A stretch of 64,000 nucleotides of DNA from an uncultured Acholeplasmataceae bacterium (GCA_927441705.1 CAKMKH010000060.1:13194-77193); one strand, 5' to 3'. Positions 22,864 to 56,425 are shown, counted from the first letter of the stretch. Notes: a model not told the origin generated them from the sequence alone. Translations and numbers: made by a program.

Positions 22864-22874
22864 GGAGTGATTAG

Positions 22875-24160: not shown

Positions 24161-24161
24161 G

Positions 24162-37104: not shown

Positions 37105-37916
37105 TGTTTATTTTTAATTATTATAGATATGCTTTTCAGTTTTCTAAATTTTTTGAACATGTCAAAGAGAAATGGTGGAAAGTATTAATATTCTTTTTCA
37201 TTGTGAGTCTTGTATCTATTTTCCCGATGAGTCTATTAATAGTACAAGAAGATGGTTGGAGATTAAATTTCATCGAAGAAAGTTTTATCAGCGAGACGCC
37301 TGAATGGCAACTACCAAATGATTGTTCTATCGTAGCTAGAAAACTTGTATGTGATACAGATGAAGTTTATGAATATGAACATAGAGGCATTACGTACATC
37401 ATTAATTATCAAAAACAAGATTTTAATGACATAACCGAAAAACAAGTTTTATTAATGGATAGTCAAATAGTCTATACAAATGGCCAAGGGGAGTATATGA
37501 TTGGCTATGATTATCAAGGATTTGAAGACGATGTTAGTTTTAGGAGCTTAAATCTTGCTACTGGAGAAGAAAAAGCACTTATGTATGCATCGTTCGGTAG
37601 ACAATTAGAATCTAGTTTCTCAAATTACATCATCTTTTACACATTGTTGGTAAATACCGCAACTAGCATTGGATTATATGCATTCTTTGTTTTAATTATG
37701 AGTTTGGTTATTCAACTTTTTAGATTTGGGTATACGAGTTTTATTACATATGGCGAATCTATGAAGTTAGTCGTGTTTGCGATGGGTGTTCCAAGTGTTG
37801 TAAGCTTTGTTGTAGGCTTTCTAGAACCGAGTTTTGCACCAGTTGTGTTTCAATTTGGAATTGGAATTATCATTATGATAGTAATGCTTAAGTACGCTAA
37901 AAAAATATTTAGGTAA
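37104..37916 (+). CDS. DUF1189-family membrane protein (YvdJ-like maltodextrin-operon protein)
   Basis: Layout and N-terminus resemble B. subtilis YvdJ. Its start abuts the GH13 gene stop. Confidence 0.55.
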   Translation: MFIFNYYRYAFQFSKFFEHVKEKWWKVLIFFFIVSLVSIFPMSLLIVQEDGWRLNFIEESFISETPEWQLPNDCSIVARKLVCDTDEVYEYEHRGITYIINYQKQDFNDITEKQVLLMDSQIVYTNGQGEYMIGYDYQGFEDDVSFRSLNLATGEEKALMYASFGRQLESSFSNYIIFYTLLVNTATSIGLYAFFVLIMSLVIQLFRFGYTSFITYGESMKLVVFAMGVPSVVSFVVGFLEPSFAPVVFQFGIGIIIMIVMLKYAKKIFR

Positions 37917-37923
37917 TAAAATA

Positions 37924-37953
37924 GGTAACACCTTATAGGTGTTATCTTTTTTT
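37924..37953 (+). terminator. terminator after the DUF1189 gene
   Basis: TAACACC / GGTGTTA stem followed by a T-run. Confidence 0.7.
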
Positions 37954-37960
37954 ATGCATT

Positions 37961-37974
37961 TGAAAACGTTATCA
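37961..37974 (+). promoter_or_regulatory. cre (CcpA-type) site upstream of the hydrogenase operon
   Basis: TGAAAACGTTATCA fits TGWAANCGNTNWCA at 14 of 14 positions. Its centre is about 50 nt upstream of the -10. Confidence 0.55.
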
Positions 37975-38015
37975 TATAGATAAATTGAGCAAATCGCTTT
38001 ACTTTTTCTAATTCA

Positions 38016-38024
38016 TGATATAAT
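38016..38024 (+). promoter_or_regulatory. extended -10 (TGATATAAT) for the hyd operon
   Basis: TGnTATAAT match 38 nt upstream of the hydC start. The -35 is weak. Confidence 0.45.
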
Positions 38025-38061
38025 AAAGCCGAAAAACGAACGACTCATAAGGAGTAAAAAA

Positions 38062-38559
38062 ATGAATAATATAGGATTTTGTAAAGAAAAGTTAGACCTT
38101 TTTTATGCTTGTTTAGAAAAGAACAAAACAAAACCTGGACCTTTAATGCCCTCATTACATGATGCGCAAAACATTTTTGGATATATACCTTTATCAATCC
38201 AAAAAATCATTAGTAAAGAATTAGGCGAAAGTGTAGCGAAAATCAATGGTGTTGTAACATTTTACGGCAATTTTTCTGTTGAACCAACGGGAGATCATCA
38301 AGTCAGTGTTTGTATGGGGACTGCATGTTATGTTAGAGGATCTAAAAATATCATGGAAACTATTGAAATTGAACTTGGGATAAAAGATGGAGAAACAACA
38401 AAAGATGGCAAAGTAACATTGTCTGCAACAAGATGTATAGGTGCATGTGGTTTGGCACCTGTTTTTTCAGTTGATGCTCAAATCCATGGCAATACAAATG
38501 TTAGTAAGGTCAGAGATGTTATCAAAGAGTTGAAGGAACACACATATGAAACTAACTGA
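38062..38559 (+). CDS. hydC: [FeFe]-hydrogenase HydC subunit (NuoE-like, [2Fe-2S])
   Basis: CMGTACYVRG ... RCIGACGLAPV is the thioredoxin-like 2Fe-2S pattern of NuoE/HndA. Confidence 0.85.
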   Translation: MNNIGFCKEKLDLFYACLEKNKTKPGPLMPSLHDAQNIFGYIPLSIQKIISKELGESVAKINGVVTFYGNFSVEPTGDHQVSVCMGTACYVRGSKNIMETIEIELGIKDGETTKDGKVTLSATRCIGACGLAPVFSVDAQIHGNTNVSKVRDVIKELKEHTYETN

Positions 38560-38929
38560 TATTATAAAGAAATATGAGTGCAAGGTTCATAGTAGCAACT
38601 TAGATCTAAATAAAGACATAATGTTTGCATTTTGTACAGATTTAATGAGTGATGCATTATTTATTATGAATACTGTTCAAGATGAAAGAATATTAGATCA
38701 TGCAATTTTAATTACTGGTCTAGCAACACAGCAGTCCATAAGAACTGCTGAGATGCTAGATATAAGTGTTGTTCTTTTAGTAAGGGGAAAAATGCCTTCT
38801 GAAAAAGTGATTGAACTTTCGAAAGAATCAAATATCATTTTATTATCCACTGACTATACAATGTTTAATGTGAGTGGATATATGTTTCAAGATGGTATTA
38901 AAGGCGTTAAGTATAATTTGAAATGGTAA
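38546..38929 (+). CDS. DRTGG-domain-like small protein
   Basis: 127 aa. The pattern ILITGLATQQSIRTAEMLDISVVLLVRGKMPSEKVIELSKESNIILLSTDYTMF resembles the DRTGG fold, although the eponymous motif is degenerate. Overlaps hydC by 14 nt. Confidence 0.5.
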   Translation: MKLTDIIKKYECKVHSSNLDLNKDIMFAFCTDLMSDALFIMNTVQDERILDHAILITGLATQQSIRTAEMLDISVVLLVRGKMPSEKVIELSKESNIILLSTDYTMFNVSGYMFQDGIKGVKYNLKW

Positions 38930-39351
38930 GCAAAGAGTATCAAATTATTGCTAAAAATTATGAGTTAGCAGGAAGAGCATCCTCTGAGATTAAAAGATTA
39001 CTAAAAAAAATGGATGTAAGTAAAACGTTACTTAAAAAAATATGTGCTGCCTCATATGAAGCTGAAATTAATGTGGTTATACATTCTGTTGGTGGTTATA
39101 TGACTTTTGATGTTTTTGATAATGAATATATTGAACTTAACATTTATGACGATGGCCCAGGTATTCTAGATATAGAACTTGCAATGACAGAAGGATATTC
39201 AACTGCTACAGAAATAGATCATGTAAATGGATTTGGTGCTGGAATGGGTTTAGCAAACATAAAAAAACTCTCGGATGTATTAGAGATACATTCTGATCCT
39301 ATGGGTACACATTTAAGAATTATATTTTTTATGGGTGAATCTGATGCATAA
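38923..39351 (+). CDS. GHKL ATPase, SpoIIAB/RsbW-like serine-kinase-type (no HisKA domain)
   Basis: 142 aa. N-box EAEINVVIHS, G1 box DDGPGI and G2 box GFGAGMGL. Confidence 0.7.
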   Translation: MVSKEYQIIAKNYELAGRASSEIKRLLKKMDVSKTLLKKICAASYEAEINVVIHSVGGYMTFDVFDNEYIELNIYDDGPGILDIELAMTEGYSTATEIDHVNGFGAGMGLANIKKLSDVLEIHSDPMGTHLRIIFFMGESDA

Positions 39352-39679
39352 AGCAAAGGAAATATTAAATGAGAATTATAATCTAGTAACAAAATTAAAC
39401 ACAATGGAAAATGATTTTGAAGGTTTGTATACAACAGATTTGTTGAGCACCGCAATTAAACATGTAAAGGATAAAGAAATATTAGTTACAATAATTGCAA
39501 CTAACACAACAATATCTTTAGCAGTTATGCTAGATATTGAGGTCATTATCATACCAGCACAAATAGAAATTGATGAACAATTAATTAATAGAGCAAATCA
39601 AGAAGATATCGCGATTATTCAGACAAGGCTTTTAACACATGAAGTGATCATTGATTTACACGAAAGAGGACTCATATGA
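39344..39679 (+). CDS. DRTGG-domain-like small protein (second copy)
   Basis: About 111 aa. ILVTIIATNTTISLAVMLDIEVIIIP...EDIAIIQTRLLTHE shows the same pattern as 38546..38929. The start could be ATG 39344 or GTG 39335. Confidence 0.45.
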   Translation: MHKAKEILNENYNLVTKLNTMENDFEGLYTTDLLSTAIKHVKDKEILVTIIATNTTISLAVMLDIEVIIIPAQIEIDEQLINRANQEDIAIIQTRLLTHEVIIDLHERGLI

Positions 39680-40365
39680 AATATGCCTATGATCTTCATA
39701 TCCATAGTGTACTTTCGCCATGTGCAGATGTTTTAATGACGCCTAATAATATTTTTAACATGGCTAAACTTAAGAGACTTGATATCATCTCAATTACAGA
39801 CCATAATTCATTAAAGCAATTATCAACATGTTTTGAGTTATCGAAAAGCTATGATATGCTCTTCATTCCAGGCGTAGAAATCACTGTTAGTGAAAATTTT
39901 GATGTCTTATGTTATTTCAAACAAATCAATGATGCTTTAGCATTTGATCAATTACTTGAAAAGTATATAGTCAAACAAGAAATCAAAAATCATAATTTTA
40001 AAGAACAAGACATCATGGACATAGATGATGAAATCGTAGGAGTTTATCCTTATGCTCTATCTGAGCCTTTAAGATTAAGCATCTATGAACTCATAGAGTT
40101 ATTAAATCCTTATGAACATTTATTAGTTTTTGCTCATGTGGATAGAAAAAAGCGTTCAGGGAAAGCTTTTATTGATTTGATTGAGCATGATGCAATTGAA
40201 ATCAATCACTTAGAAAACCAATCACTTTTTAAGACTAATAAAACAATATTATTTAATTCAGATGCTCATCAAATTACAGATATTTTAGAAAGAACAAAAG
40301 ATAATATCATATCATTAGATAAATTAGATATCGATAGTTTCTTTAAGTATTTTAATCATGATTAA
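39676..40365 (+). CDS. PHP-domain phosphoesterase
   Basis: YDLHIHSVLSPCAD, ITDHNS, AHVDR and NSDAH are the four PHP metal-binding motifs. Confidence 0.75.
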   Translation: MKYAYDLHIHSVLSPCADVLMTPNNIFNMAKLKRLDIISITDHNSLKQLSTCFELSKSYDMLFIPGVEITVSENFDVLCYFKQINDALAFDQLLEKYIVKQEIKNHNFKEQDIMDIDDEIVGVYPYALSEPLRLSIYELIELLNPYEHLLVFAHVDRKKRSGKAFIDLIEHDAIEINHLENQSLFKTNKTILFNSDAHQITDILERTKDNIISLDKLDIDSFFKYFNHD

Positions 40366-40888
40366 ATTTACTGACTATATATATGATCTCATTCAAAACT
40401 CTATAAAAGCACATGCAGATCTAATAACACTTAAAGTCACATTTTTAGATGACACATTAAATTTAAGTATTATTGATGATGGCATAGGTATGACAACGGA
40501 AGTTTTAAATCAGGTTAGAAAATTTGAATATACATCAAATCAAAAAAGAACTGTAGGACTAGGTTTATCGATGATTCATGATTTATGCGAACAAACAAAT
40601 GGTAGTTTTGATATTGATTCTATTTATCATAAAGGAACAAACCTGAATTTGAGTTTTAACTATAAACATATTGATTTTCCTAATTTTGGTGATTTAGGAA
40701 CATTAGTTTCTGATTTATATATGCATCAAGAATTAATAGGATTTAAATTTGTATACTGTATCAATAAAAATAAAATAATATATCATCTACCAAAGGCTTT
40801 GCTAGAGGATATAAGATCATTTAAAATTAAAAAATTTATTGAAGAAGATATAAACACAAACTTAAAAAAAGTTGAGGGATGTAAATGA
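40358..40888 (+). CDS. GHKL ATPase domain protein (histidine-kinase-like catalytic domain only)
   Basis: 176 aa. N-box LIQNSIKAHA, G1 box DDGIGM and G2 box GLGLS. There is no phospho-acceptor His domain. Confidence 0.65.
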   Translation: MIKFTDYIYDLIQNSIKAHADLITLKVTFLDDTLNLSIIDDGIGMTTEVLNQVRKFEYTSNQKRTVGLGLSMIHDLCEQTNGSFDIDSIYHKGTNLNLSFNYKHIDFPNFGDLGTLVSDLYMHQELIGFKFVYCINKNKIIYHLPKALLEDIRSFKIKKFIEEDINTNLKKVEGCK

Positions 40889-41256
40889 AAACACTTGAAG
40901 AGTTAAAGAAATTAAGAGATGAGTCTTTAAAAAAAATGACAATGCGTGATATCAAAAATGGATTTAGAATACAAGTAGGTATGGGCACCTGTGGAATTGC
41001 AAGTGGTGCAAGACCCATTCTAAATGCATTTTTAGAACAAGTTGATATTCATGACTTAAAAACTGTTACTGTTACACAAGTTGGATGCATGGGAGAATGT
41101 GCATACGAACCTATGGCAGAAATTATTGATGAAACTGGACAATCTTATATGTATTGCAGTTTGACCATTCCAATGGTAAGAGAGATTGTAGAAAAACACA
41201 TCATCAATCATCAACCAGTAGCAAGATTATTACTGTCATCAAGAAAGGGGTCATAA
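40885..41256 (+). CDS. thioredoxin-like [2Fe-2S] ferredoxin (HydD-like small subunit)
   Basis: GMGTCGIASGA ... VGCMGECAYEP four-Cys pattern. Confidence 0.8.
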   Translation: MKTLEELKKLRDESLKKMTMRDIKNGFRIQVGMGTCGIASGARPILNAFLEQVDIHDLKTVTVTQVGCMGECAYEPMAEIIDETGQSYMYCSLTIPMVREIVEKHIINHQPVARLLLSSRKGS

Positions 41257-41257
41257 T

Positions 41258-43069
41258 ATGTTAGAGAGAATTCAAGTCCTCATATGCGGCGGTACTGGAT
41301 GCATGAGTTCACATTCAAAAGAGATTAAAGAAGCTTTTGAAGATGAACTAATTGCTATGGGTATTAAAGAAGAAGTCAGTTTAATATTAACTGGTTGTTT
41401 TGGGCTATGTGAACGTGGTCCTGTTATTGTTATTTATCCTGATGAAACATTTTATGCACATGTAAAAGTACAAGATGTCAAAGAAATTTGTCATGAACAC
41501 TTATTAAAGGGTAGACATATTGATCGCCTACTTGTAAAAGATCCTGGTGAAAAACATAAAATAAAACAAATGAGTGAATTAAAGTTTTATTCTAAACAAA
41601 AAAGAATTGCACTTAGAAATTGTGGACAAATAAATCCTTTAGACATAAATGAATATATTGCAAGAGATGGTTATCTTGCATTAGGTAAAATATTAACTGA
41701 AATGACACCTAATGAAGTTATCAGTGAAGTTCTTGAATCAGGGTTAAAAGGTAGAGGTGGCGGAGGCTTTTTAACTGGTAAGAAATGGCAATTTGCTGCA
41801 CAGTCACAAAGCGACACAAAATATGTAATTTGTAACGCTGATGAGGGCGATCCAGGTGCATTTATGGATAGAGCAATTTTAGAAGGTGATCCTCATTCAG
41901 TTTTAGAAGCAATGACAATTTGTGGATACGCTATAGGCGCATCACAAGGATACATATATATAAGAGCTGAATATCCTGTTGCTGTTGAAAGATTAAATCA
42001 CGCAATCAAACAAGCAAAGGAAAATCAACTGATTGGAGATAACATTTTCGGATCAGATTTTTCATTTGATATCGACATAAGACTTGGTGCAGGTGCTTTT
42101 GTATGTGGTGAAGAAACTGCACTTATTAAATCTATAGAAGGTTATCGTGGAATGCCAGTGTTAAAACCTCCATTTCCTGCAATTAAAGGGTTATGGAATC
42201 AACCAACAAACGTTAATAACGTTGAGACATTCGCGAATATTCCGGTTATATTTCTAAAAGGTGCTGAATATTTTAAATCGATTGGCACTAAAAATTCTTC
42301 AGGCACTAAAGTATTCGCTTTAGGCGGAAAAATAAATAATACAGGATTAGTTGAAGTCCCAATGGGAACAACACTAAGAGAAGTTGTTTATGAAATTGGT
42401 GGCGGTATACCTAATAAAAGAAAATTTAAAGCTATACAAACAGGTGGTCCATCTGGCGGATGTATTACTGAAAAAGATTTAGATACGCCAATTGATTTTG
42501 ATAATTTAACCAAATTAGGTTCAATGATGGGATCTGGTGGAATGATCATCATGGATGAAGATAATTGTATGGTTGATGTCGCAAGATTTTATCTAGATTT
42601 TACTGTTGAAGAATCTTGTGGAAAATGTACCCCATGTAGAGAAGGTACGAGAATGATGCTTGATATACTAAATAGAATTTGTGATGGTGACGGTACTCTA
42701 GAAGATATTGATGAACTAGAAAAACTAGGTAACATGATTCAAAAAACATCACTATGCGGTCTAGGACAAACTGCACCTAATCCGGTTTTATCAACATTAA
42801 AACACTTTAGAGAAGAATATATTGCACATATAGTTGATCATAGTTGTCCTGCTGGTGTTTGTAGAAACTTAACAAACTTTGTTATTGATGATAGTTGTAT
42901 AGGTTGTACTAAATGTGCTAAACATTGTCCGGTTAATGCGATTTCTGGTTGGCCAAAACAAATTCATATAATTGACTCAGAACTTTGTATTCAATGTGGA
43001 GCATGTAAAAAAGCTTGTCCAGTTAGCGCTATTTCAAGTCAGCCTGTTGAAAGAGGTGAAGCACGATGA
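41258..43069 (+). CDS. hydB: [FeFe]-hydrogenase HydB subunit (NuoF-like; FMN/NAD(H)-binding, multiple Fe-S)
   Basis: N-terminal 2Fe-2S (CGGTGC...GCFGLCERGP). GRGGGGFLTGKKW and NADEGDPGAFMDR (NADH/FMN). ESCGKCTPCREG (N3 cluster). C-terminal 2x[4Fe-4S] (CIGCTKCAKHCP, CIQCGACKKACP). Confidence 0.92.
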   Translation: MLERIQVLICGGTGCMSSHSKEIKEAFEDELIAMGIKEEVSLILTGCFGLCERGPVIVIYPDETFYAHVKVQDVKEICHEHLLKGRHIDRLLVKDPGEKHKIKQMSELKFYSKQKRIALRNCGQINPLDINEYIARDGYLALGKILTEMTPNEVISEVLESGLKGRGGGGFLTGKKWQFAAQSQSDTKYVICNADEGDPGAFMDRAILEGDPHSVLEAMTICGYAIGASQGYIYIRAEYPVAVERLNHAIKQAKENQLIGDNIFGSDFSFDIDIRLGAGAFVCGEETALIKSIEGYRGMPVLKPPFPAIKGLWNQPTNVNNVETFANIPVIFLKGAEYFKSIGTKNSSGTKVFALGGKINNTGLVEVPMGTTLREVVYEIGGGIPNKRKFKAIQTGGPSGGCITEKDLDTPIDFDNLTKLGSMMGSGGMIIMDEDNCMVDVARFYLDFTVEESCGKCTPCREGTRMMLDILNRICDGDGTLEDIDELEKLGNMIQKTSLCGLGQTAPNPVLSTLKHFREEYIAHIVDHSCPAGVCRNLTNFVIDDSCIGCTKCAKHCPVNAISGWPKQIHIIDSELCIQCGACKKACPVSAISSQPVERGEAR

Positions 43070-44829
43070 AACTACATGTAAATATAAATATCAATGGCAT
43101 TGAATATCAAGCCGATCCTAGTGATACAGTTTTAAAAGCTGCAGAAAAAAATAATGTCTACATTCCTAGATTATGTTTTTTAAAAGATATCCATGAAGAA
43201 GGTAATTGTAGAGTTTGTTCAGTTAAAATAGAAGGACAAAAAAATCTTAAACCTGCATGTAAAACCATGGTTGAAGAAGGTATGAGAATCATAACAGATG
43301 ATCAAGAAATATATGACACAGTAACAATGAATTTAGAACTCCTTACACATAGACATCACTTTGAGTGTTTTAAATGCTCAAGAGAAAATAATTGTGAGTT
43401 TCTTGATTTGCTAAGAAAATATTCTATTGATAATGAATTTACGAACATGTATGGCATGTTTGATGAAGATGCTTATTATTATCAAGATGAATCTAATGTC
43501 ATGATTATTGATAGTAGTAAATGTATTTTATGTGGTAGATGTGTTTCTGCATGTGAAAAACTATCTGGATTAAGTGTACTAAATTTCAATGAACGTGGTA
43601 ATAAAACATATGTCGGACCTGCACTATTCCATGAATTATCAGATAGTGGATGTATTTATTGTGGTAAGTGTATAGGAGCATGTCCAACAGGTGCACTTAG
43701 AGAAGTGGATCAAATAAAAGAATTTGAAAGAGATTTAAGAAATCCGAATAAAAAAATCGTTGTTCAAGTTGCACCAGCTGTTAGAGCTGCATTAGGCGAA
43801 GAATTCGGATATCCAATAGGAACAAATGTTGAAGGCAAGTTGTTTAGTGCATTAAAAATTATGGGTGTTCATGAACTTTTGGATACAAATTTTGCTGCTG
43901 ACTTAACCATTATGGAAGAAGGCACAGAATTTATTAATCGTCTACAAAATAACGATAGACTTCCGATGTTTACATCATGTTCACCAGGTTGGATAAATTT
44001 ATTAGAATTGAATTATCCAGAATATATTCCTAATCTTTCTTCATGTAAATCTCCTCAACAAATGGCTGGAGCTTTAATAAAAACACATTACGCTAAAAAA
44101 ATGAATCTAGACCCTAAAAATATCGTATCTGTATCGATAATGCCATGTATTGCTAAAAAAGCAGAAGCAAATCGTATAGAGATGGGTAGAGATGGTTATA
44201 GAGATGTCGATTATGTATTAACAACAAGAGAGTTAGCGAGAATCATTAGAAGAAAAGGTATTGATTTTGCTAATCTAGAAAATAGTAAACCATTTGGAAC
44301 ACTTGCATCATATACAGGAGCTGGTGCTATATTTGGAGCAACAGGTGGCGTTATGGAAGCTGCGCTTAGATCAGTTAGTGAAATTCTTGATAAGAAAGAA
44401 ACACCAATTGAATTTAAGAATGTTAGAGGAAATAGCGATATCAAAGAAGCAACTTATCAAATTGCAGGTAAAGATATCAATGTTGCTGTTGTTCATGGTG
44501 GTGCGGCAATTATTCAATTTTTGGATCATCTTAAGGAAGGTCACAAACAATACCATTTTGTAGAGTTCATGGGTTGTACAGGTGGTTGTATTAATGGTGG
44601 GGGACAACCGATTGTTACAGCTAAAGATCAAGAAAAATATGATGTTAGAAAATTAAGAGCTAGTGTTTTATATAACATTGATCAAGCATCAACAGTTAGA
44701 AAGTCACACCAAAATGAATTTGTTCAAAATTTATATCGTGACTTCTTAGAAAAACCAAATTCTAAAAAAGCTCATGAATTATTGCATACAAGTTACAAAA
44801 AAAGAGAAACATATCAAAATGTTGAATAA
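43066..44829 (+). CDS. hydA: [FeFe]-hydrogenase catalytic subunit, M3 architecture
   Basis: N-terminal 2Fe-2S, a His-ligated 4Fe-4S (HHFECFKCSRENNC), and 2x[4Fe-4S]. H-cluster motifs are FTSCSPGW (variant P1), MPCIAKKAE (P2) and EFMGCTGGCINGGGQP (P3). Confidence 0.93.
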   Translation: MKLHVNININGIEYQADPSDTVLKAAEKNNVYIPRLCFLKDIHEEGNCRVCSVKIEGQKNLKPACKTMVEEGMRIITDDQEIYDTVTMNLELLTHRHHFECFKCSRENNCEFLDLLRKYSIDNEFTNMYGMFDEDAYYYQDESNVMIIDSSKCILCGRCVSACEKLSGLSVLNFNERGNKTYVGPALFHELSDSGCIYCGKCIGACPTGALREVDQIKEFERDLRNPNKKIVVQVAPAVRAALGEEFGYPIGTNVEGKLFSALKIMGVHELLDTNFAADLTIMEEGTEFINRLQNNDRLPMFTSCSPGWINLLELNYPEYIPNLSSCKSPQQMAGALIKTHYAKKMNLDPKNIVSVSIMPCIAKKAEANRIEMGRDGYRDVDYVLTTRELARIIRRKGIDFANLENSKPFGTLASYTGAGAIFGATGGVMEAALRSVSEILDKKETPIEFKNVRGNSDIKEATYQIAGKDINVAVVHGGAAIIQFLDHLKEGHKQYHFVEFMGCTGGCINGGGQPIVTAKDQEKYDVRKLRASVLYNIDQASTVRKSHQNEFVQNLYRDFLEKPNSKKAHELLHTSYKKRETYQNVE

Positions 44830-45712
44830 AAAAATATTAATATTACTTGCTTGTATAAGTATATTAGTTTTAATGTCTAGCTGTAAGAAAGATGTCCTTA
44901 ATATGCTTGTACCAAGCGGTAGCCCACAATTTGCACAACTCTATATGCAAAACAGTAGTGATTATGAAGTTACAGTTGTTCAAGGTGCAGATCCTTTAGT
45001 ATCTGCATTCGCATCAGAAAGCTATGATATTATTATTGCACCTACGAATTTAGGTGCAAAGCTTTACCAGTCAAAACAAAGTTATCAACTTGCTGCTAGC
45101 ATTACATGGGGTAATTACTATTTAATTAGTAAAGAGGTAATTAAACTAGATGATTTAGATAATCAGGATGTGATTGCTTTTGGTCAAAACCAAACACCTG
45201 ATGCAATATTACAGTATGTTCTAAAAGATATACCAGTTCAAATATCTTATCTTGATAGTGTGACATCAGTAGTATCTGATTTTATCATTGATGGCAGTCA
45301 AATTTATTTAGTTGCTGAGCCTTCTCTAAGTATACTAAAAGCATCTTATACATTGAGTATTATTGACTTACAAGACCTTTATCAAGAGAAAACTGGAAGA
45401 AATAGTTATCCTCAAGCTAGTGTTTTTGTTAATAGTGAACTTAGTGATCGTATGGTTAAAAATATTAAAGATGATTTTAAAAAATCTATTGAAGATACAT
45501 TAGATAATCCTTTAAATGCAGCTATACTTGCAATTGCTTTAGGCATTAACATGGAACAAGCGATTATTGAATCAGCAATTGGAAACTCTCATATTATATA
45601 TAAAAGTAGTGATGATGCAAAAGAAGATATTATAATTTATTTGGAAATGCTTAAAACTTTTAATTCTAATTTCACAGGAGATAATCTACCAGACGATTCT
45701 TTTTATAGATGA
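44819..45712 (+). CDS. ABC transporter substrate-binding lipoprotein (NitT/TauT/ThiY-like class, substrate unknown)
   Basis: Lipobox LMSSC. I prefer ATG 44819 (MLNKKIL...), which overlaps the hydA stop by 11 nt. The fold class is inferred from its pairing with a TauC/SsuC-like permease. Confidence 0.6.
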   Translation: MLNKKILILLACISILVLMSSCKKDVLNMLVPSGSPQFAQLYMQNSSDYEVTVVQGADPLVSAFASESYDIIIAPTNLGAKLYQSKQSYQLAASITWGNYYLISKEVIKLDDLDNQDVIAFGQNQTPDAILQYVLKDIPVQISYLDSVTSVVSDFIIDGSQIYLVAEPSLSILKASYTLSIIDLQDLYQEKTGRNSYPQASVFVNSELSDRMVKNIKDDFKKSIEDTLDNPLNAAILAIALGINMEQAIIESAIGNSHIIYKSSDDAKEDIIIYLEMLKTFNSNFTGDNLPDDSFYR

Positions 45713-45723
45713 GGGTATAACGA

Positions 45724-46458
45724 ATGAAAAATTTGTCAATTAAAATTTCATCTATTTTATCGATTCTAATGATATGGTATGTCGTCTATTTAGTTATAGA
45801 TCATCCTTTGCTAATGCCATCTTTTATCGATGTAGGAAAAGCATTTATAAAAATGTTTCAATCCAAGATATATTTATTAGCATTTGGGCATAGTATTTTT
45901 AGATTATTTGTAAGTTTATTGATTTCTAGCATGTTAGGTATTATTGTTGGATTTCTATCGGCCAAATATGATTTATTACAAACATGGATAAAACCATATA
46001 TTACTATAATAAAAACTATACCTGTTATATCCGCAATCATTATTATGTATGTGATATTTGGCTTTCAAATCGCACCTTATGTAATTACATTTCTTATGAT
46101 ATTTCCATTATTTTATCAAGCTACATATCAAGGTATAAAACATATATCTAAAGATATGATGGACGTGTATCATCTAGAAACAAGCGATTGGTATTTATGC
46201 TTAAGATTTGTTTATCTGCCAAATATAAGAGATTATTTGCTTTTAGCATTTTACCAATCATTTGGACTGGGATTTAAAGTGTTAGTAACTTCAGAGTTTA
46301 TATCACAAACAAGACAATCAATTGGTAAATTGTTATATGAAGCCAAAGTTAACTTAAATTATGATATTGTCTTTGCGTTAACTATATTCTTAATATTAAT
46401 GACTCTTTGTGTAGAATGGTTTGCGGATCGATATAAAAAACGATTAGGTGATGAGTAA
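45724..46458 (+). CDS. ABC transporter permease (NitT/TauT family-like)
   Basis: 244 aa, 6 TM segments, with an EAA-like loop SEFISQTRQSIGKLLYEA. Confidence 0.75.
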   Translation: MKNLSIKISSILSILMIWYVVYLVIDHPLLMPSFIDVGKAFIKMFQSKIYLLAFGHSIFRLFVSLLISSMLGIIVGFLSAKYDLLQTWIKPYITIIKTIPVISAIIIMYVIFGFQIAPYVITFLMIFPLFYQATYQGIKHISKDMMDVYHLETSDWYLCLRFVYLPNIRDYLLLAFYQSFGLGFKVLVTSEFISQTRQSIGKLLYEAKVNLNYDIVFALTIFLILMTLCVEWFADRYKKRLGDE

Positions 46459-47989: not shown

Positions 47990-50920
47990 TTACTCACCAC
48001 TTCCTTCATCATTTAAAGTGACATTATATTTATAACCTTCAACAATCAAGGTGTAATAATATAATTTGTAACCTTGATATGGATCATCAACGCCTATGGT
48101 GATGGTATATCTACCAGGCGTATTGACATCATGATAATTTGAAGTATAAATGCTTGCGTTTTCATTTAAAATCTCTATGTTTGATAGAGGATCAAATGTT
48201 TGTCCATCTTGAATGACTACTTCAGATTTTTTAATAGAGATTGGAGCTCCTAAATCTTCAACTAAAATCATTGTTGTATTGGCAGGTACGAAGATAGCAT
48301 CAGTAACTGTATCAATGCCTTGAATGTTTGCTTCTAATGTGTTTGTTAAGATTCTATATGGAACACCACTATCAAGCATGACTCCAGTTAAACCAAATCT
48401 AGGGTTACCACTATGAATAACAACGATATCTGGATGATTTGTGCCACCAGTTAATTTAAATGCGATACCTTCATTACCAGCATCAGTATCTAAGAATGTT
48501 AGGTTTGCTTTGATAAGTTCAGCATCATTCATTCTAAATTGCGGGTATTTTTTTCTAATTTCAATAAGTACTTTATAATATTCAAAGACATTATTGTATT
48601 CTAATTTACGATCCCATCTCATCTGATTTACTGAATCTGGTGATTCATAAGAGTTATGATCGTAGCCACCTAACCCATCAGGTTTAGATCTCATGAATTC
48701 AACACCAGCATGTAAGAATGGAATACCTTGAGATGTTAAAATGATTGCATTTGATTGAATTTGCATCTCGTCGATGATTGAGTTACTTACTTTTGTTAAT
48801 TTTAGTTTATCGTAGAGTGTATTGTTATCGTGTGCTGATACGTAATTTATGGTTTGATTTGGATTCAAATGCCATTCATTAAATTCAGTAATACCAGGAA
48901 ATTCGATACCGCCAACGATCCCGTACATAATACCTTGTGTTGTATAAGTAGTTGCATTACCTTGAACCCACCCTTTTTCTGCTGATTGGAATACTGAGCC
49001 TTTAACAGCATCTCTTGTGATATCATTAAATGCGCCAACCAAGTTCATGTTTTTGATGTTATCTTTTCCAGCAGCTTCGCTATTTGAAAGAGGAGTAGTT
49101 CCACCGTTCCATGGTTCACCATAAACTATGATTGTTGGATCGATTTCTTCAAGCATAGCTTGGATTTCATTCATTGTGTCATAATCATGAAGTGCCATTA
49201 AGTCAAATCTGAATCCTGACATGTTGTATTCAGTTGCCCAAAATTCAACAGAATCTACCATGAATTTTCGCATCATTGATCTTTCAGATGCAGTTTCATT
49301 ACCGGTTCCTGAACCGTTAGAAAAACCACCATCTTCAGTTAATCTATGATAATATCCAGGTACAATTTTATGGAAGTTGGATGTTGCTGATTCACCTGTG
49401 TGATTATAAACAACATCCATAATAACTCTTATTTCTTTTTCATGAAGTGCCATAACGACTTGTTTGAATTCATTAATTCTTAATTGTCCATCAAAAGGAT
49501 TCGTAGAATAAGATCCTTCTAAAGTATTAAAATGATAAGGCATATAACCCCAATTGAATAGATTTTGGTATGCTGGGTTATTAGCCACTTCAACTTCATC
49601 GACATATCCAAAATCAAATATTGGAAGCAGTTGAACTGCATTTACACCTAATTCTTCGATATGGTCTAGACCTGTTGTGACTGTATCGATACCATTGGTA
49701 TATGTTGTATCGGTTTCAGTTAAACCTAAGAATTTTCCGCGATAACTTTCTGTACCATTCCATGTATTATGTGTCGTTAAATCTCTGACATGCAATTCAT
49801 AAACGATATAATCAGTTAAGTTTGTAATTGTGTCGGGTCTATCATTATATGTCCATCCGTTCGGGTTCGTTTGATCAAAATCAACAATCATGCCTCTTTG
49901 ACCGTTTGCGCCAGTAGAATAAGCGTATGGATCAGTAACTTCATAAGTTTGAGAGTTATTTACTACAGAAAATGTATAATATTTGAAGTCGAGATCTCCT
50001 GTTAATTTAATTTCCCAAGCACCACTTTCAATCCTATATAATGGTTCTGATTGATATGGTGTTAATTCATCATTTCGTTCACCGTCATTATTATAATTTG
50101 GATGACCTTGATTGTATAAATTTAAAGTTACAGATTCGCTTAATGGAGCCCACAATCTAAAGACTGTGTACTCATCTTCAAAACTTACACCAAGTGTGCC
50201 ATCATATGTGTAAAGATCTTCGAATGCTTTTGTATCGTAAATATTTTGTAGTGATACAATTGATTCGCTTGATAGTTCAGCATCAAATATAGCATTTACT
50301 GTATATGTTTTAGAAATATCAATACTTGGAACTGTTATTGTTGTTGTTTTAGATGTCGTTGTTCCAGATAAGATTAATATATCATTTTCATAGACTTCAT
50401 ATCCTCCAGCAGGGATATGTGTTGTTTTTAAAACGATTTGTTGTGTTTGATTAAACGCAACAGATAATATTTTCGCACGATAGTCGGGAATGTTATTTTC
50501 TAGGTCGCTATTTGATGTGCCAAATCGTAGATCGCCTTCCACAAAGTAAGCGTGTGCAACACCACCAATAACTTCAATCGTTTCTAAATCTATAAAACGA
50601 TCTCCACCTGGTTCACGATAACCATCCCATCCACCAGCTCTAATGATAATACCTAGTTTAGTTGCAGTAGGATAATCTGCTGATAAATCAACTTCATAGT
50701 ATACACCATGTTCATCTATTTGATTTGAATCAAAGTCGTGTTCAATTCCACCTAATGAAGCAGGTTCGCTTTCCCACATCCAGAAATCATAATTTGTGTA
50801 TGTCTCATCATATCTATAATAATGAACAACAAGTGTTGACGGTAGATCTGCTGCAATCGCAGAAACACCAAATGTTATTGATGTAATTATAAACAATAAT
50901 AATGTTAATATTTTTTTCAT
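47990..50920 (-). CDS. pulA: secreted type I pullulanase (CBM41-like N-terminus, GH13 core, C-terminal Ig-like domain)
   Basis: Signal peptide. LVVHYYRYDETYTNYDFWMW (PUD/CBM41-like). FNWGYMPYHF, VIMDVVYNHT, GFRFDLMALH, YGEPWNG and YVSAHDN. Confidence 0.9.
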   Translation of the reverse strand: MKKILTLLLFIITSITFGVSAIAADLPSTLVVHYYRYDETYTNYDFWMWESEPASLGGIEHDFDSNQIDEHGVYYEVDLSADYPTATKLGIIIRAGGWDGYREPGGDRFIDLETIEVIGGVAHAYFVEGDLRFGTSNSDLENNIPDYRAKILSVAFNQTQQIVLKTTHIPAGGYEVYENDILILSGTTTSKTTTITVPSIDISKTYTVNAIFDAELSSESIVSLQNIYDTKAFEDLYTYDGTLGVSFEDEYTVFRLWAPLSESVTLNLYNQGHPNYNNDGERNDELTPYQSEPLYRIESGAWEIKLTGDLDFKYYTFSVVNNSQTYEVTDPYAYSTGANGQRGMIVDFDQTNPNGWTYNDRPDTITNLTDYIVYELHVRDLTTHNTWNGTESYRGKFLGLTETDTTYTNGIDTVTTGLDHIEELGVNAVQLLPIFDFGYVDEVEVANNPAYQNLFNWGYMPYHFNTLEGSYSTNPFDGQLRINEFKQVVMALHEKEIRVIMDVVYNHTGESATSNFHKIVPGYYHRLTEDGGFSNGSGTGNETASERSMMRKFMVDSVEFWATEYNMSGFRFDLMALHDYDTMNEIQAMLEEIDPTIIVYGEPWNGGTTPLSNSEAAGKDNIKNMNLVGAFNDITRDAVKGSVFQSAEKGWVQGNATTYTTQGIMYGIVGGIEFPGITEFNEWHLNPNQTINYVSAHDNNTLYDKLKLTKVSNSIIDEMQIQSNAIILTSQGIPFLHAGVEFMRSKPDGLGGYDHNSYESPDSVNQMRWDRKLEYNNVFEYYKVLIEIRKKYPQFRMNDAELIKANLTFLDTDAGNEGIAFKLTGGTNHPDIVVIHSGNPRFGLTGVMLDSGVPYRILTNTLEANIQGIDTVTDAIFVPANTTMILVEDLGAPISIKKSEVVIQDGQTFDPLSNIEILNENASIYTSNYHDVNTPGRYTITIGVDDPYQGYKLYYYTLIVEGYKYNVTLNDEGSGE

Positions 50921-50979
50921 TTGAAATACCTCCTCTTAATACAAATATAACACGTATTTTGAATAAAATGTTAATAAGG

Positions 50980-50993
50980 TGATAGCGATTACA
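50980..50993. promoter_or_regulatory. cre-like site in the divergent pulA / starch-uptake control region
   Basis: TGATAGCGATTACA matches the cre consensus at 13 of 14 positions. Confidence 0.4.
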
Positions 50994-50997
50994 AAAA

Positions 50998-51011
50998 GGA
51001 AACGGTTGCAC
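50998..51011. promoter_or_regulatory. LacI-family-type operator (reverse strand TGCAACCGTTTCCT)
   Basis: Shares the TGCAA-N-CG core with the sites at 35040 and 57931. Confidence 0.4.
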
Positions 51012-51024
51012 AATAGCACATCAT

Positions 51025-51038
51025 TAAAAGCGTTTACA
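51025..51038. promoter_or_regulatory. cre-like site
   Basis: Reverse strand reads TGTAAACGCTTTTA, a 13-of-14 match to the cre consensus. Confidence 0.4.
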
Positions 51039-51114
51039 TTTTTCACGTTAATGTGATAAAATTTAAGAGTCAAGAATTATATTTGAAATTCTTAAAAAAT
51101 ATAGGAGGAAGAAA

Positions 51115-52587
51115 ATGAAAAAAGTTTTATTAGCCTTTTTCTTAGTACTGACAGTTGCGGCGTTTTTCGGAGTCAAAGCATCTGCTGCTGGTACAGGTAA
51201 CTTAGTTGTTCATTTCCAAGCTTGGGATGGCAATTATGAAAACATAGGATCATGGGCATGGGGAAGTACTGCAGCTGGTAAACGCGCTGATGGCACTGAT
51301 GATTTTGGTGCATATTACGAGTTTAATGATGTAGCTGTTGGAACAGAAGTAGGATTTATTGCTGTTTACTGGGAAGGCGACGGACCAGATTGGAATAAAA
51401 AATTAACTGGTGATGTTAATATTCCTGCTGACACAGTTATTGAAAACGAAACTGTTCATGTTTATGTGTTTGAAGGAGCTGCAACAGTTAAAACTGAAGG
51501 TGTGATCACTGATCCACAATCATTTGTTGCATCTAACGATCATTACAATATGTTATTAGTATATTTTGATCCATCAGGAAGCTATGAAGAAACACTTGGT
51601 GTTCATGCTTGGAACGGTTGGGTAAATGATGCCGATAAATATGGTACTGATTTTGGCGTTTGGGCTACACCTGCACAAATCTTTAGTGATGCTGGTAAAA
51701 CAGTTGATGGTTCTACAGTTAAGGCTGCTATGATCCAATCAACAACTGCTGATGCAGGTTTATTAGTATATGCTGGCGATGACGCTACTAAAAAGACTGG
51801 TGACGTAACATTAACTGCTGCTTTATCAGAAACACCTGCTTTAGGTGATACTGGTGTTGCATATGTTTTAAGTAAAGGTAATGCTTATGCTGCTGGAGAC
51901 AACGTTTTCTATAACGATCCTTCAACATTCTCAGAAGAAGCATTTACTTTTAAATTAACAGAATACAATGCTGAAGATCAAGATGGTACTTATGCAGTTG
52001 ATCCTTACACAATTATTGTTAAGACTAGTGCATTAGTTGAATCTCCTTATCCAGAAGCTGGCGTTAAGTATTTAGCTCAAAAAGAAATTGAAAGTTGGTT
52101 TAAAGTTAGAGCTAATTTAGGCGATGGAAATTATGGTTCAGCTTTAACTATTGACCGTGTTGACTTTGCTACTACAAATGATACATTAAATTCATTTGTT
52201 ATTATCTTAAAAACACCATTAGTTATTGAAGCAGAATATTCTGTATTCTTTGATAATGGTTTAGTACAAGCTGATATTGAATTAGCTATGGATACTGAAG
52301 CTCCAGTAATCACATTTATTTCACCAACTGGTATTGTTGGTAAAGATGCTGATGAAAGAATTATTGAAGTTCCTTGGGGAGCACCATTTAGTCAAAACTT
52401 ATTCCCAAGATTTAGAGCTACAGATAATCGTGATGGTGATTTAACATCATTCGTATTCGTACCTAAAGGTGCAAATTCAGTACTTGACACAAGAACTGAA
52501 GGCGATTATGTTATCGTATTGCGTGTTGTTGATGAATGGGGTAATGTTACAGAAGAAGCATTCACATTCAGAGTAGTGAAAGGTTAA
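51115..52587 (+). CDS. secreted non-catalytic alpha-glucan-binding protein (two CBM41/PUD-like modules plus a C-terminal Ig-like domain)
   Basis: Signal peptide ...VKASA. LVVHFQAWDGNYENIGSWAWG and LLVYFDPSGSYEETLGVHAWNGW repeat the PUD pattern of the pullulanase N-terminus. I recognise no GH13 catalytic regions. The C-terminus (DNRDGDLT...GDYVIVLRVVDEWGN) is DUF5011-like. Confidence 0.6.
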   Translation: MKKVLLAFFLVLTVAAFFGVKASAAGTGNLVVHFQAWDGNYENIGSWAWGSTAAGKRADGTDDFGAYYEFNDVAVGTEVGFIAVYWEGDGPDWNKKLTGDVNIPADTVIENETVHVYVFEGAATVKTEGVITDPQSFVASNDHYNMLLVYFDPSGSYEETLGVHAWNGWVNDADKYGTDFGVWATPAQIFSDAGKTVDGSTVKAAMIQSTTADAGLLVYAGDDATKKTGDVTLTAALSETPALGDTGVAYVLSKGNAYAAGDNVFYNDPSTFSEEAFTFKLTEYNAEDQDGTYAVDPYTIIVKTSALVESPYPEAGVKYLAQKEIESWFKVRANLGDGNYGSALTIDRVDFATTNDTLNSFVIILKTPLVIEAEYSVFFDNGLVQADIELAMDTEAPVITFISPTGIVGKDADERIIEVPWGAPFSQNLFPRFRATDNRDGDLTSFVFVPKGANSVLDTRTEGDYVIVLRVVDEWGNVTEEAFTFRVVKG

Positions 52588-52598
52588 GGAGGCCAACT

Positions 52599-53975
52599 AT
52601 GAAAAAATTTCTATTAATATTATTCGTAATTCTTGGTGGCTTATCTCTTGCTGCATGTAATGAAGATCCAGAAGATCCAACAGATCCAACAGATCCAACG
52701 GATCCAGATAACAATGGTGAATTAATCGATTTTGCTGACACATTTACTCAAAAATCAAAAATCCGTGTATGGATTGATGATGAAAATGGTGAATATATGA
52801 CAGCTGTTATTGAAGAATTCAACAAAGTTTATCCAAATATTATAGTTGAACACGAACATATGGGTAGTGTTGATGCTCGTGAACTTCTTAAAACATTTGG
52901 TCCTTCAGGAAATGGTGCTGACGTATTCCAATTTCCTCATGATCATTTAGCACAAGCAGTTTTAGAAGATTTAGTTTATCCACTTCCAGAAGCTACACGT
53001 ACAGCATTAGCTGAACGTTCAGCTGAATTAGGGTTACAAATTGCTACATTAACTTATGATGAAACTAACAACTCATTTGATCCTGAAAGTGAAAATGCAG
53101 TTGAAAGACTATATGCAGTTCCAATGTCATTAGAATCTGTTGGTTTATACTATAATACAGATTTAGTTGATACACCTGCTGCTACATTTGAAGAATTATT
53201 AGCTGCTGCAGACGTATGGAATGCTGCATTAGCAGACGATGATTCTGGCAGAACTAATGCACAAGCTGGCTTATATTACTTAGGTACTTCAAGTCACTGG
53301 GCAGACAGCTATTTCGTTCAAGCTATTTATTCAGCATTTGGATTCTATCCATTTGGTGTTAATTTAGATGATCCATCAGCTGTAGGTTTTGCAAATGCAG
53401 TTCCTGCTTTAACTTGGATGAGAGATGAATTAAAACCACGTACAACTGGTACTGGTTCTCATAACTCAATCGCAGCTGGCGGTAACTTTGAATTAGGCGA
53501 TATTCCTTATATCATTGCTGGTCCATGGAATATTGAAGCTTATAGAAATGCTGGTTTAAATTTCGCGATTGCTCCAATGCCAACAATTAATGGTAATGAT
53601 ACACAAACATTTGCTGGTGCTCAAATGGCAGCAGTATATAAATATTCTGAAAATAGAGAAGATGCAATTAAGTTTGTTGAATTCTTAGCTTCAGATATCG
53701 CAATGGAATTAATGTATGAATACAAAGGTAAATTACCTGCTCTTAAGACTGAATTCTTAGGCGACATTGAAGGTGTAAATACTGATACATTATTATTAGC
53801 TATGGCTGAACAATTAAAAACTTCAGTTCCAATGCCTACTATTCCTCAAGTAACTTATTACTGGGGACCAGGTGAAGTTATGATTATTGATGTTTGGAAT
53901 AACGGTGTTAATCCAACAACTGCAGCAGCAACTGCTGAACAATCATATAGAACTCGTGTAGGTTTAGCTGGTTAA
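52599..53975 (+). CDS. malE: maltodextrin ABC transporter substrate-binding lipoprotein
   Basis: Lipobox SLAAC. MalE/MdxE-like pattern (IRVWIDDE, VFQFPHD, IAGPWN, PMPT). Followed by malF and malG. Confidence 0.85.
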   Translation: MKKFLLILFVILGGLSLAACNEDPEDPTDPTDPTDPDNNGELIDFADTFTQKSKIRVWIDDENGEYMTAVIEEFNKVYPNIIVEHEHMGSVDARELLKTFGPSGNGADVFQFPHDHLAQAVLEDLVYPLPEATRTALAERSAELGLQIATLTYDETNNSFDPESENAVERLYAVPMSLESVGLYYNTDLVDTPAATFEELLAAADVWNAALADDDSGRTNAQAGLYYLGTSSHWADSYFVQAIYSAFGFYPFGVNLDDPSAVGFANAVPALTWMRDELKPRTTGTGSHNSIAAGGNFELGDIPYIIAGPWNIEAYRNAGLNFAIAPMPTINGNDTQTFAGAQMAAVYKYSENREDAIKFVEFLASDIAMELMYEYKGKLPALKTEFLGDIEGVNTDTLLLAMAEQLKTSVPMPTIPQVTYYWGPGEVMIIDVWNNGVNPTTAAATAEQSYRTRVGLAG

Positions 53976-54006
53976 TTTTAAAATTGTGAAATAAATTAAA
54001 CTGATG

Positions 54007-54036
54007 TGAGGCGGCATAATATTTATGCCGTCCTCA
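54007..54036 (+). other. intercistronic stem-loop between malE and malF
   Basis: TGAGGCGGCAT / ATGCCGTCCTCA stem with one bulge. No T-run follows it. Confidence 0.5.
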
Positions 54037-54061
54037 TTAGTTTATATATACGGAGGGCTCA

Positions 54062-56422: not shown

Positions 56423-56425
56423 ACT

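Follow-up and report, generated by a model that had tools for sequence, protein, structure and literature searches.

HydABC hydrogenases and the Rnf complex set the balance between NADH, ferredoxin and H2 in fermenters, syntrophs, acetogens and gut bacteria, and we know of no post-translational control acting on either of them. Accessory genes described as "histidine-kinase-like" have been noticed beside the hydrogenase genes, but only as such, and their roles are uncharacterised in any organism. This study concerns five small genes, here called o1 to o5, that lie inside the [FeFe]-hydrogenase operon of an uncultured Acholeplasmataceae bacterium. The source is a metagenomic contig, and the stretch that was analysed (GCA_927441705.1 CAKMKH010000060.1:13194-77193, 64 kb in length) is referred to as the window. 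The five genes encode two small proteins assigned to the DRTGG fold, two GHKL ATPases and a PHP-family phosphoesterase. The data reported here give good support to the view that they form a sensor-less, operon-embedded variant of an accessory module that is widespread with ferredoxin- and NAD(H)-linked redox complexes.

The closest described systems are clusters that encode the putative sensory [FeFe]-hydrogenase HydS. A "histidine/serine kinase" has been noted between sensory and bifurcating hydrogenases (PMC3561251). In Thermoanaerobacter mathranii a "histidine kinase-like ATPase" adjoins TamHydS, the characterised example of the M2e subclass, and it was left as an open question how signalling proceeds there without a PAS domain (PMC8163306). 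M2e sensors lack a catalytic proton path. The HydDB database uses the label "C1, histidine kinase-linked (putative)" (PMC5037454), which may correspond to the M2e subclass. A related arrangement is found in A. woodii, where hydE lies between hydC and hydD, and in A. mobile, where hisK holds the same position in the NiFe-HydABCSL operon (PMC9304861). Both products are reported to be absent from the enzymes as purified. HfsABCD of Thermoanaerobacterium and the PAS-type (M2f) HydS of Ruminococcus albus share the concept of a sensory [FeFe]-hydrogenase that works with a Ser/Thr-type kinase and phosphatase to control fermentative electron flow. However, those systems use PAS sensors and a serine phosphatase, with no DRTGG or PHP protein described, whereas the window contains no sensor. 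In the literature no relevant paper was found that links DRTGG with hydrogenases or that combines the sensory hydrogenase HydS with a kinase and a phosphatase.

Organization of the hydrogenase operon

The contig is AT-rich (about 30% G+C), is Acholeplasmatales-like and uses TGA as a stop codon. Nine genes follow each other on the + strand in the order hydC, o1, o2, o3, o4, o5, hydD, hydB and hydA. The five cassette genes were all found at the positions, and with the lengths, given in the initial annotation. The first gene, hydC (38062..38559, 165 amino acids), encodes a NuoE-like thioredoxin-type [2Fe-2S] subunit (PF01257, 152.7 bits). It is followed by o1 (38546..38929, 127 amino acids), a stand-alone DRTGG-fold protein recognised by profile comparison and by AlphaFold2 and Foldseek, and by o2 (GHKLa; 38923..39351, 142 amino acids), a SpoIIAB/RsbW-like GHKL ATPase matching HATPase_c_2. 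The gene o3 (39344..39679, 111 amino acids) encodes the second DRTGG-fold protein, recognised by its paralogy to o1, o4 (39676..40365, 229 amino acids) a metal-dependent phosphoesterase matching Pfam PHP, and o5 (GHKLb; 40358..40888, 176 amino acids) a histidine-kinase-type ATP-binding domain matching HATPase_c. Behind these lie hydD (40885..41256, 123 amino acids), for a small thioredoxin-like protein of ferredoxin fold (PF01257, 28 bits), hydB (41258..43069, 603 amino acids), for the NuoF-like FMN/NADH subunit (Pfam and NCBIfam), and hydA (43066..44829, 587 amino acids), for the catalytic [FeFe]-hydrogenase subunit (NF040763). The start of o3 was placed at the ATG (39344), where both the alignments of orthologs and a separate public gene call put it; a start at the GTG (39335) would give 114 amino acids.

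HydA scored 772 bits against the NCBIfam NF040763 cut-off of 765, and among solved structures its best match is A. woodii HydA1 (7Q4V; E-value 5e-170). By sequence comparison the structural part of the operon is an ordinary HydABCD set of the A. woodii type, made up of an NADH-group HydA, a NuoF-like HydB, a NuoE-like HydC and a small HydD, and bifurcating activity is predicted. The H-cluster motif of HydA (residues ~303-309) reads TSCSPGW, compared with TSCCPGW in CpI of C. pasteurianum. Since A. woodii HydA1 has the same serine, this residue may be a feature of the HydABCD clade and not a defect.

Successive genes from hydC to hydD overlap by 14, 7, 8, 4, 8 and 4 nt, hydD and hydB are separated by 1 nt, and hydB and hydA overlap by 4 nt. 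These re-measured values agree with those reported before, from which co-transcription and translational coupling had been proposed. The 5' boundary of the unit is formed by an intrinsic-terminator-like hairpin on the + strand (37923..37947, with an 11-bp stem and TTTTTTT behind it) at the end of the DUF1189 gene that lies upstream. The 114-nt spacer between this terminator and hydC carries a cre-like site, an extended -10 element and a ribosome-binding site. The putative promoter on the + strand (37996..38024, identified from its sequence) consists of a weak -35 and the extended -10 TGATATAAT, with the -10 at 38016-38024, and either TGTTATAAT or TGATATAAT recurs upstream of hydC among related loci. 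The ribosome-binding site of hydC is AAGGAG at 38049-38054 (+). Within the operon the number of promoter-like matches was 50, compared with 54.7 in shuffled sequence, so there was no excess. The sole terminator-like match inside the operon, at 41402-41421 within hydB, is weak, and none was convincing. Because there is a terminator and a promoter-like element at the 5' end, no convincing internal terminator, and overlap or abutment at every junction, the prediction that the nine genes are co-transcribed and translationally coupled is well supported.

The cre-like (CcpA-type) operator TGAAAACGTTATCA (37961..37974, +) lies upstream of the promoter and matches TGWAANCGNTNWCA exactly. There are only two exact matches in the window, the second being at 50980-50993 (-), upstream of a pullulanase gene. 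Core 9-mers of the cre site were found upstream of hydC in half of the related loci (36 of 72). This suggests that the hydrogenase operon may be under catabolite control. A Rex operator was also looked for upstream of hydC, and no convincing conserved match was found there, the cre-like site standing in its place. No Rfam family matched either strand of 37500-45500 at E<=0.1.

Conservation of the cassette within the Mycoplasmatota

When GTDB was scanned with a PHP alignment, each species being represented by one genome, 484 species proved to have relatives, and the best 80 loci were analysed. These come from Acholeplasmatales, Izemoplasmatales and other Mycoplasmatota/Bacilli, with PHP identities of 41-61%. 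The order hydC-o1-o2-o3-o4-o5-hydD-hydB-hydA was found in every one of the 80 loci that was long enough, with a single exception, and all nine genes were complete in 52 of the 80. Where tblastn missed o3, its place is taken by an open reading frame (ORF) with a DL(L/M)S motif, and this holds for all loci with enough upstream sequence. The exception is Mycoplasmatota bacterium WC44 (L066; CP134881.1, 8877-15757), in which o1 to o5 are followed by hydC, hydD, hydB and hydA; this arrangement is intermediate between the order seen in Clostridia and that of the window. As the same order recurs across related loci down to 41% PHP identity, the nine-gene arrangement is not due to chance. In related Mycoplasmatota loci the cassette is syntenic with the hyd genes rather than sporadic.

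Mean Kimura distances were calculated among 53 complete operons. The structural proteins gave 0.28 for HydB, 0.44 for HydA, 0.53 for HydC and 0.57 for HydD, and the cassette proteins gave 0.59 for o1, 0.65 for o2, 0.82 for o4, 1.13 for o3 and 1.20 for o5. These distances indicate that all five cassette genes are under selection, with o1 and o2 constrained approximately like HydC and HydD.

A search for HydS-like genes found none in the window (64 kb) and none closer than 10 kb to the cassette in any of the 80 Mycoplasmatota loci. The HydS queries matched nothing in these sequences apart from HydA and the tail of HydB, which is ferredoxin-like.

The cassette in other phyla

Thirteen loci from outside the Mycoplasmatota were sampled, from Clostridia and one Parabacteroides. 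In 11 of them a HydS of 321-462 amino acids is encoded between o2 and o3. It has an Fe_hyd_lg_C domain and a C-terminal FeS domain and, in most of these loci, two Fer4 motifs as well. The HydS proteins of those 11 loci contain the Cx2Cx4Cx16C motif that defines the M2e putative sensory [FeFe]-hydrogenases. The recurrent order in Clostridia is o1, o2, HydS, o3, o4, a gap of 130-300 nt, and then hydC, o5, hydD, hydB and hydA (L088, L089), with a variant in which the two halves are divergently transcribed (L082, L092). The M2e clusters and the window therefore share the series DRTGG, SpoIIAB-like GHKL, DRTGG and PHP in the same relative order, near hydC, a histidine-kinase-like GHKL, hydD, hydB and hydA. 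However, the window and the 80 related loci have no sensor gene locally, hydC stands in front, and all genes are joined in one coupled operon.

Some of the sampled loci connect the same genes to Rnf. In three of them hydC, GHKLb, hydD and hydB occur without hydA and are followed by rnfCDGEAB (L085, 10024-13283; L086, 9842-13081; L093, 13358-16603); this would be a NuoEF-like module that stands next to Rnf without a catalytic hydrogenase partner. In the two of the 13 loci that lack HydS, from Crassaminicella profunda (L083; CP082326.1, cassette at 7850-10279) and Anaeromicrobium sediminis (L091; cassette at 10001-12442), a sensor-less five-gene set in the order of the window lies directly upstream of rnfCDGEAB. 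No hydrogenase was found within 9-10 kb of either, and in both a gene for a SPOR-domain protein precedes the cassette. Finally, in Parabacteroides distasonis (L081; NZ_OY725779.1, 6496-10267) a series of DRTGG, GHKL, HydS, DRTGG, PHP and GHKL genes stands alone in a member of the Bacteroidota. The sequence NZ_OY725779.1 is labelled as a 375-kb "plasmid" but may be chromosomal, since it carries gyrA and clpB-like genes.

In the database searches at least 7,997 o1-like proteins and at least 6,922 PHP-like proteins were counted, and the PHP profile matched 273 clusters (at 50% identity) at E<=1e-30. The common neighbour of the cassette is a flavoprotein with the Complex1_51K/SLBB FMN-NADH module, either HydB or RnfC.

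The five genes are not a single unit peculiar to this operon. The cassette consists of two sub-modules: o1 to o4 normally flank the HydS gene, and o5 normally lies between hydC and hydD. The earlier proposal that the module acts directly on the hydrogenase complex can be true only in part, because the set also occurs with Rnf without a nearby hydrogenase, and alone. What is new in the window and its relatives is that the transducer genes are kept without a nearby sensor and are fused into the structural operon, with hydC moved to the front.

DRTGG-fold proteins o1 and o3

The family assignments made earlier for the five proteins were upheld, by Pfam thresholds for o2, o4 and o5 and by profile, fold and paralogy for o1 and o3. 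Against Pfam DRTGG (PF07085) o1 scored 20.3 and o3 18.5 bits, both under the 25.2-bit gathering threshold, but many orthologs outside the Mycoplasmatota do have precomputed PF07085 matches. A profile of o1 orthologs matches solved DRTGG domains, namely that of the CBS-pyrophosphatase of C. perfringens (3L2B; E-value 5e-6) and also AF1212 (2IOJ). The AlphaFold2 model of o1, built from a 79-sequence alignment, has a predicted local distance difference test score (pLDDT) of 94.8. Its best Foldseek matches are 3L2B, 2IOJ (template modelling scores of 0.74-0.78 for 2IOJ) and the N-terminal domain of HPr kinase, with E-values from 3e-6 to 1e-3. This model confirms the predicted DRTGG fold of o1. A STAS-like fold had also been considered for o1 and was ruled out, since Foldseek returned clear DRTGG matches and no STAS. 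The two proteins o1 and o3 are paralogs (hhalign probability 99.5%), and it is by this paralogy only that o3 is assigned to the DRTGG fold.

The structural relatives of o1 are regulatory or dimerising modules on phospho-transfer enzymes, whereas o1 and o3 stand alone, lack the name-giving D-R and T-G-G residues and have an invariant DL(M/L)S motif of their own. At the TGG position of 3L2B, o1 has an invariant R80-G81-K82 (RGK), and o3 has no conserved residues. From Mycoplasmatota to Bacteroidota the invariant or near-invariant residues of o1 are D32, M34, S35, D36, T57, G58, Q63, R66, T67, R80 and K82. Going by its topology, the AlphaFold2 model places these residues at the junction of beta1 with alpha2 and where beta2 and beta3 end, which is the C-terminal edge of the parallel sheet. 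Such folds bind their ligands at this edge, and Rossmann-like folds bind phosphorylated ligands there. The invariant Ser35 is only suggestive as a possible site of phosphorylation by o2. The paralog o3 evolves fast, and its conservation is confined to the DLLS motif and T49. In one natural protein (P0200, 373 amino acids) an o3-type DRTGG domain is fused to a PHP domain, which suggests that o3 is a partner domain of the PHP enzyme rather than simply a kinase substrate.

GHKL ATPases o2 and o5

The o2 protein scored 39.5 bits against Pfam HATPase_c_2 (threshold 27.4), and among solved structures it is nearest to the anti-sigma F factor SpoIIAB (E-value 5.5e-10). It scored 42.7 bits with NCBIfam TIGR01925, under the equivalog cut-off of 135. 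Its ATP-binding boxes are complete, with YEAEINVVIHS as the N box, DDGPGI as G1 and GFGAGMGL as G2. The consensus across orthologs from Mycoplasmatota to Bacteroidota is YEAEINxVIHS, DxGPGI and GFGAGMGL, and E46, N50, H54, D76, G78, G80 and G103-G109 are invariant. The o5 protein scored 49.3 bits against HATPase_c (threshold 26.4). Its closest solved relatives are the catalytic domains of histidine kinases, the best being KinB (3D36; E-value 3.6e-17), and its N, G1 and G2 residues are also invariant across phyla. Judged from these alignments, the ATP-binding boxes of both ATPases are intact.

The o5 protein begins directly at the N box. Its catalytic ATP-binding domain takes up residues 1-100 and is followed by a C-terminal domain of about 75 amino acids that has an HID..P.GD motif and no family match. 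No HisKA/DHp domain was found in o5 with Pfam or NCBIfam. The histidine of the HID motif was considered as a phospho-acceptor and rejected, since a part of the orthologs carry Asn or Ser at this position. The initial annotation had noted histidine-kinase-like ORFs in other hyd operons, and A. woodii HydE and A. mobile hisK are indeed such cases. Like them, o5 lies between hydC and hydD and is described as a histidine-kinase ATP-binding domain, although in the window o1 to o4 are inserted between hydC and o5. The homology of o5 to A. woodii HydE is inferred here from position and description, not from sequence comparison.

Pfam and NCBIfam searches of the nine operon proteins gave no match to HisKA, receiver (Response_reg), STAS, sigma-factor or DNA-binding families, which agrees with the earlier statement that no DNA-binding domain, sigma factor, receiver or STAS partner is present. 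The partner that adjoins o2 has the DRTGG fold and is not a STAS antagonist. No sigma-factor or DNA-binding gene was found beside the cassette in the 93 loci examined, and the operon contains no gene for a cognate sigma factor. The five cassette proteins also gave no match to any anti-phage defence system in PADLOC.

PHP phosphoesterase o4

The Pfam PHP match of o4 is marginal, at 27.7 bits against a threshold of 26.4. The metal ligands H8, H10, D18, H43, E68, H154, D196 and H198 are conserved, in agreement with the ligand pattern HxH, D/H, H, E, H, H, DxH of the PHP family, and H8, H10, H43, E68, H154, D196 and H198 are invariant. Residue 76 is Asp in the window and a subset of close Acholeplasmataceae relatives (ENFDVLCYF), whereas 51 distant relatives have an invariant His (E..HVLC.F). 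Going by the alignment, Asp76 is possibly a change of metal ligand. The fold search used the well-predicted PHP domain of the P0200 homolog and not o4 itself. The top Foldseek matches of this modelled domain were EndoQ, RNase AM, BAD_1165, the Cv1693 pAp phosphatase and the PHP domains of Pol III/PolC. Sub-threshold NCBIfam matches of o4 were to a nucleoside-bisphosphate phosphatase and RNase RNM.

Genes around the operon

A lipoprotein gene without a Pfam match begins 11 nt upstream of the stop codon of hydA, and next to it comes an ORF for a possible ABC-type permease (44819-46458, +). These two genes may be co-transcribed with the hyd operon because there is no terminator between them and hydA. 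Two antisense ORFs, at 39219-39455 and 40836-41018, were taken as chance ORFs in AT-rich DNA. Upstream in the window, at 21784-25428 (+), lie a gene for a Glu/Leu/Phe/Val-type dehydrogenase and, at 23024-24160, one for the alpha subunit of a 2-oxoacid:ferredoxin oxidoreductase. Downstream, 47990-63664 is occupied by a large cluster for starch and pullulan utilisation, with a pullulanase, amylases and a sugar ABC transporter. None of the maturase genes hydE, hydF and hydG was seen among the window ORFs that were scanned.

Discussion

The cassette resembles the SpoIIAA-SpoIIAB-SpoIIE and RsbV-RsbW-RsbU systems in having a HATPase_c_2 protein of about 140 amino acids, preceded by a gene for an alpha/beta protein of about 115-125 amino acids, and a phosphoesterase gene nearby. 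However, the partner in the window is DRTGG and not STAS, the phosphoesterase is PHP and not PP2C, no sigma factor is linked in the 93 loci, an extra histidine-kinase-type GHKL protein is present, and phosphorylation is only predicted. The initial annotation had read the cassette as a non-canonical partner switch in which the GHKL ATPases are kinases, the DRTGG proteins substrate or antagonist, and PHP the phosphatase. This reading holds in part: SpoIIAB is the nearest relative of o2, and the order o1-o2 mimics spoIIAA-spoIIAB. It holds less well for the other components, since the nearest structural relatives of the PHP domain are not protein phosphatases and a DRTGG-PHP fusion exists.

The reading put forward here, which is tentative and nearly balanced between belief and doubt, is that an ATP-driven phospho- or partner-switch acts post-translationally on the NuoF-type NADH/FMN module and sets its activity or its state of assembly. 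In this scheme o2, with its intact ATP site, would bind o1 and probably phosphorylate Ser35 in the DLMSD motif, where the serine would be surrounded by invariant Asp, Thr, Arg and Lys residues that form a pocket. The second DRTGG protein, o3, would dock the PHP enzyme o4, and pairing between the two DRTGG proteins could bring o1 to the PHP metal centre and so reset the switch. As an orphan histidine-kinase ATP-binding domain encoded beside hydC and hydD, o5 may link the switch with the hydrogenase. In clusters that have HydS, this protein would provide the H2 input; in the window the input would instead be the adenylate charge or the redox state of HydC/HydD. SpoIIAB and RsbW respond to adenylate charge. 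The NuoF-type module is proposed as the target because the recurring neighbour is a Complex1_51K/SLBB flavoprotein, HydB or RnfC. Action at the level of the protein is also consistent with the operon having its own cre-like site and promoter while the cassette encodes no DNA-binding protein. The binding steps, the phosphoryl-transfer steps and the target of the switch are all inferred. A further-reaching version of this reading, possible but on the whole unlikely, is that the cassette is an autonomous and previously undescribed partner switch, with DRTGG in place of STAS and PHP in place of PP2C, which directly gates, on the protein itself, the NuoF-type modules of electron-bifurcating and ferredoxin:NAD enzymes (HydB, RnfC). 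HydS would then be optional, and energy charge or HydC/HydD redox state would be read in this Mycoplasmatota lineage.

Several observations weigh against a phospho-switch on the NuoF-type module. DRTGG domains are known as regulatory or dimerisation modules of phospho-transfer enzymes and not as kinase substrates. The nearest structural relatives of the PHP domain act on nucleic acids or nucleotides, and protein phosphatases of the CpsB/YwqE type were not among the best 50 Foldseek matches of the P0200 PHP domain. In the AlphaFold2 model of the P0200 fusion, the DRTGG part had no alignment cover and a pLDDT below 50, and there was no usable DRTGG-PHP interface. Mirror-tree partial correlations among the nine proteins were weak and non-independent, and the highest was for o2-HydD (0.63), not for o1-o2. 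The o5 gene is missing from three otherwise complete clusters (L084, L087, L090). No hydABC or rnf genes lie within 9 kb of the Parabacteroides cassette, which indicates that the target of the cassette can act in trans. Lastly, as only neighbourhoods were searched, a HydS gene could still lie elsewhere in the genomes that appear to be sensor-less.

Some of these points fit better with a system in which no protein is phosphorylated. Here the DRTGG proteins would bind a nucleotide or metabolite, as is supposed for the regulatory N-terminal part of Pta and for the CBS-DRTGG insert found in family II pyrophosphatases, and the GHKL proteins would be ATP/ADP-sensing clamps that tune HydABC or Rnf to the energy charge as ligand-sensing allosteric regulators. 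The PHP enzyme would hydrolyse a nucleotide-like signal or side product, for example pAp, a dinucleotide or an oligoribonucleotide, in keeping with a fold nearest to EndoQ, RNase AM, BAD_1165 and Cv1693 and with the nucleotide-type NCBIfam matches below threshold. The invariant Asp, Ser, Thr, Arg and Lys residues of o1 also fall where Rossmann-like folds bind phosphorylated ligands, and DRTGG is the regulatory part of phospho-transfer enzymes in 3L2B and the HPr kinase N-terminal domain. However, o2 is specifically SpoIIAB-like, and the members of that family are protein kinases and binding partners. Two GHKL ATPases with invariant catalytic boxes fit poorly with passive sensors, and no candidate enzyme for producing a ligand is encoded nearby, so this explanation is regarded as unlikely. 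The same likeness of o2 to the anti-sigma F factor could be taken at face value, with o2 holding a sigma or transcription factor encoded elsewhere, o1 as its antagonist and PHP as the input phosphatase. The spoIIAA-spoIIAB-like gene order agrees with such a classical switch on transcription, as do the published hypotheses for HydS- and Hfs-type systems, which are transcriptional. Against it stand the antagonist, which is not STAS, and the 93 loci in which no sigma or DNA-binding gene accompanies the cassette. Translational coupling to structural subunits would be unusual for low-copy transcription regulators, and the operon already has a conserved cre-like operator; this makes a transcriptional role quite improbable.

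An equally poor prospect is that the proteins are assembly or maturation factors, in which the GHKL proteins would be chaperone-like clamps comparable to Hsp90 and MutL, and the PHP enzyme would process a nucleotide cofactor, together aiding the insertion of FMN or Fe-S clusters into HydB/RnfC. The neighbouring complexes do share the Complex1_51K/SLBB FMN-NADH module, A. woodii HydE has been suggested to act "in assembly or signalling", and with coupled translation these proteins would be made in near-stoichiometric amounts to the enzyme. However, according to the literature consulted, the purified preparations and solved structures of HydABC enzymes do not contain these proteins as subunits, and o2 and o5 resemble kinases rather than chaperone-type GHKL proteins. 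Signalling is favoured over assembly because most lineages organise these genes around a putative sensor hydrogenase that lacks a catalytic proton path. The local absence of HydS, together with the fast evolution of o3 and o5 (1.13 and 1.20), could also be taken to mean that the five genes are decaying, functionless remnants of a HydS signalling cluster after loss of its sensor. This is scarcely credible and is effectively refuted by the conservation data: the 80 loci, with PHP identities as low as 41%, all keep the five ORFs intact, their catalytic and motif residues are invariant, o1 and o2 are constrained like HydC and HydD, and there is an independent sensor-less set in Clostridia.

Significance

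The genes that had been noted in passing as "histidine-kinase-like" can now be described as a defined set of five proteins with thousands of sequences in the databases. The accessory set is separable from the sensor, and it is kept under strong constraint in two or more settings that have no nearby sensor, namely next to HydABC (Mycoplasmatota) and next to Rnf (two Clostridia). The proposed switch is testable at the Ser35 pocket of o1, at the docking of o3 to the PHP enzyme and at the link of o5 to HydC/HydD. The Mycoplasmatota operon offers a stripped-down, sensor-less system for the biochemistry of hydrogenase control, and it could provide handles for engineering the yields of H2 and ethanol.

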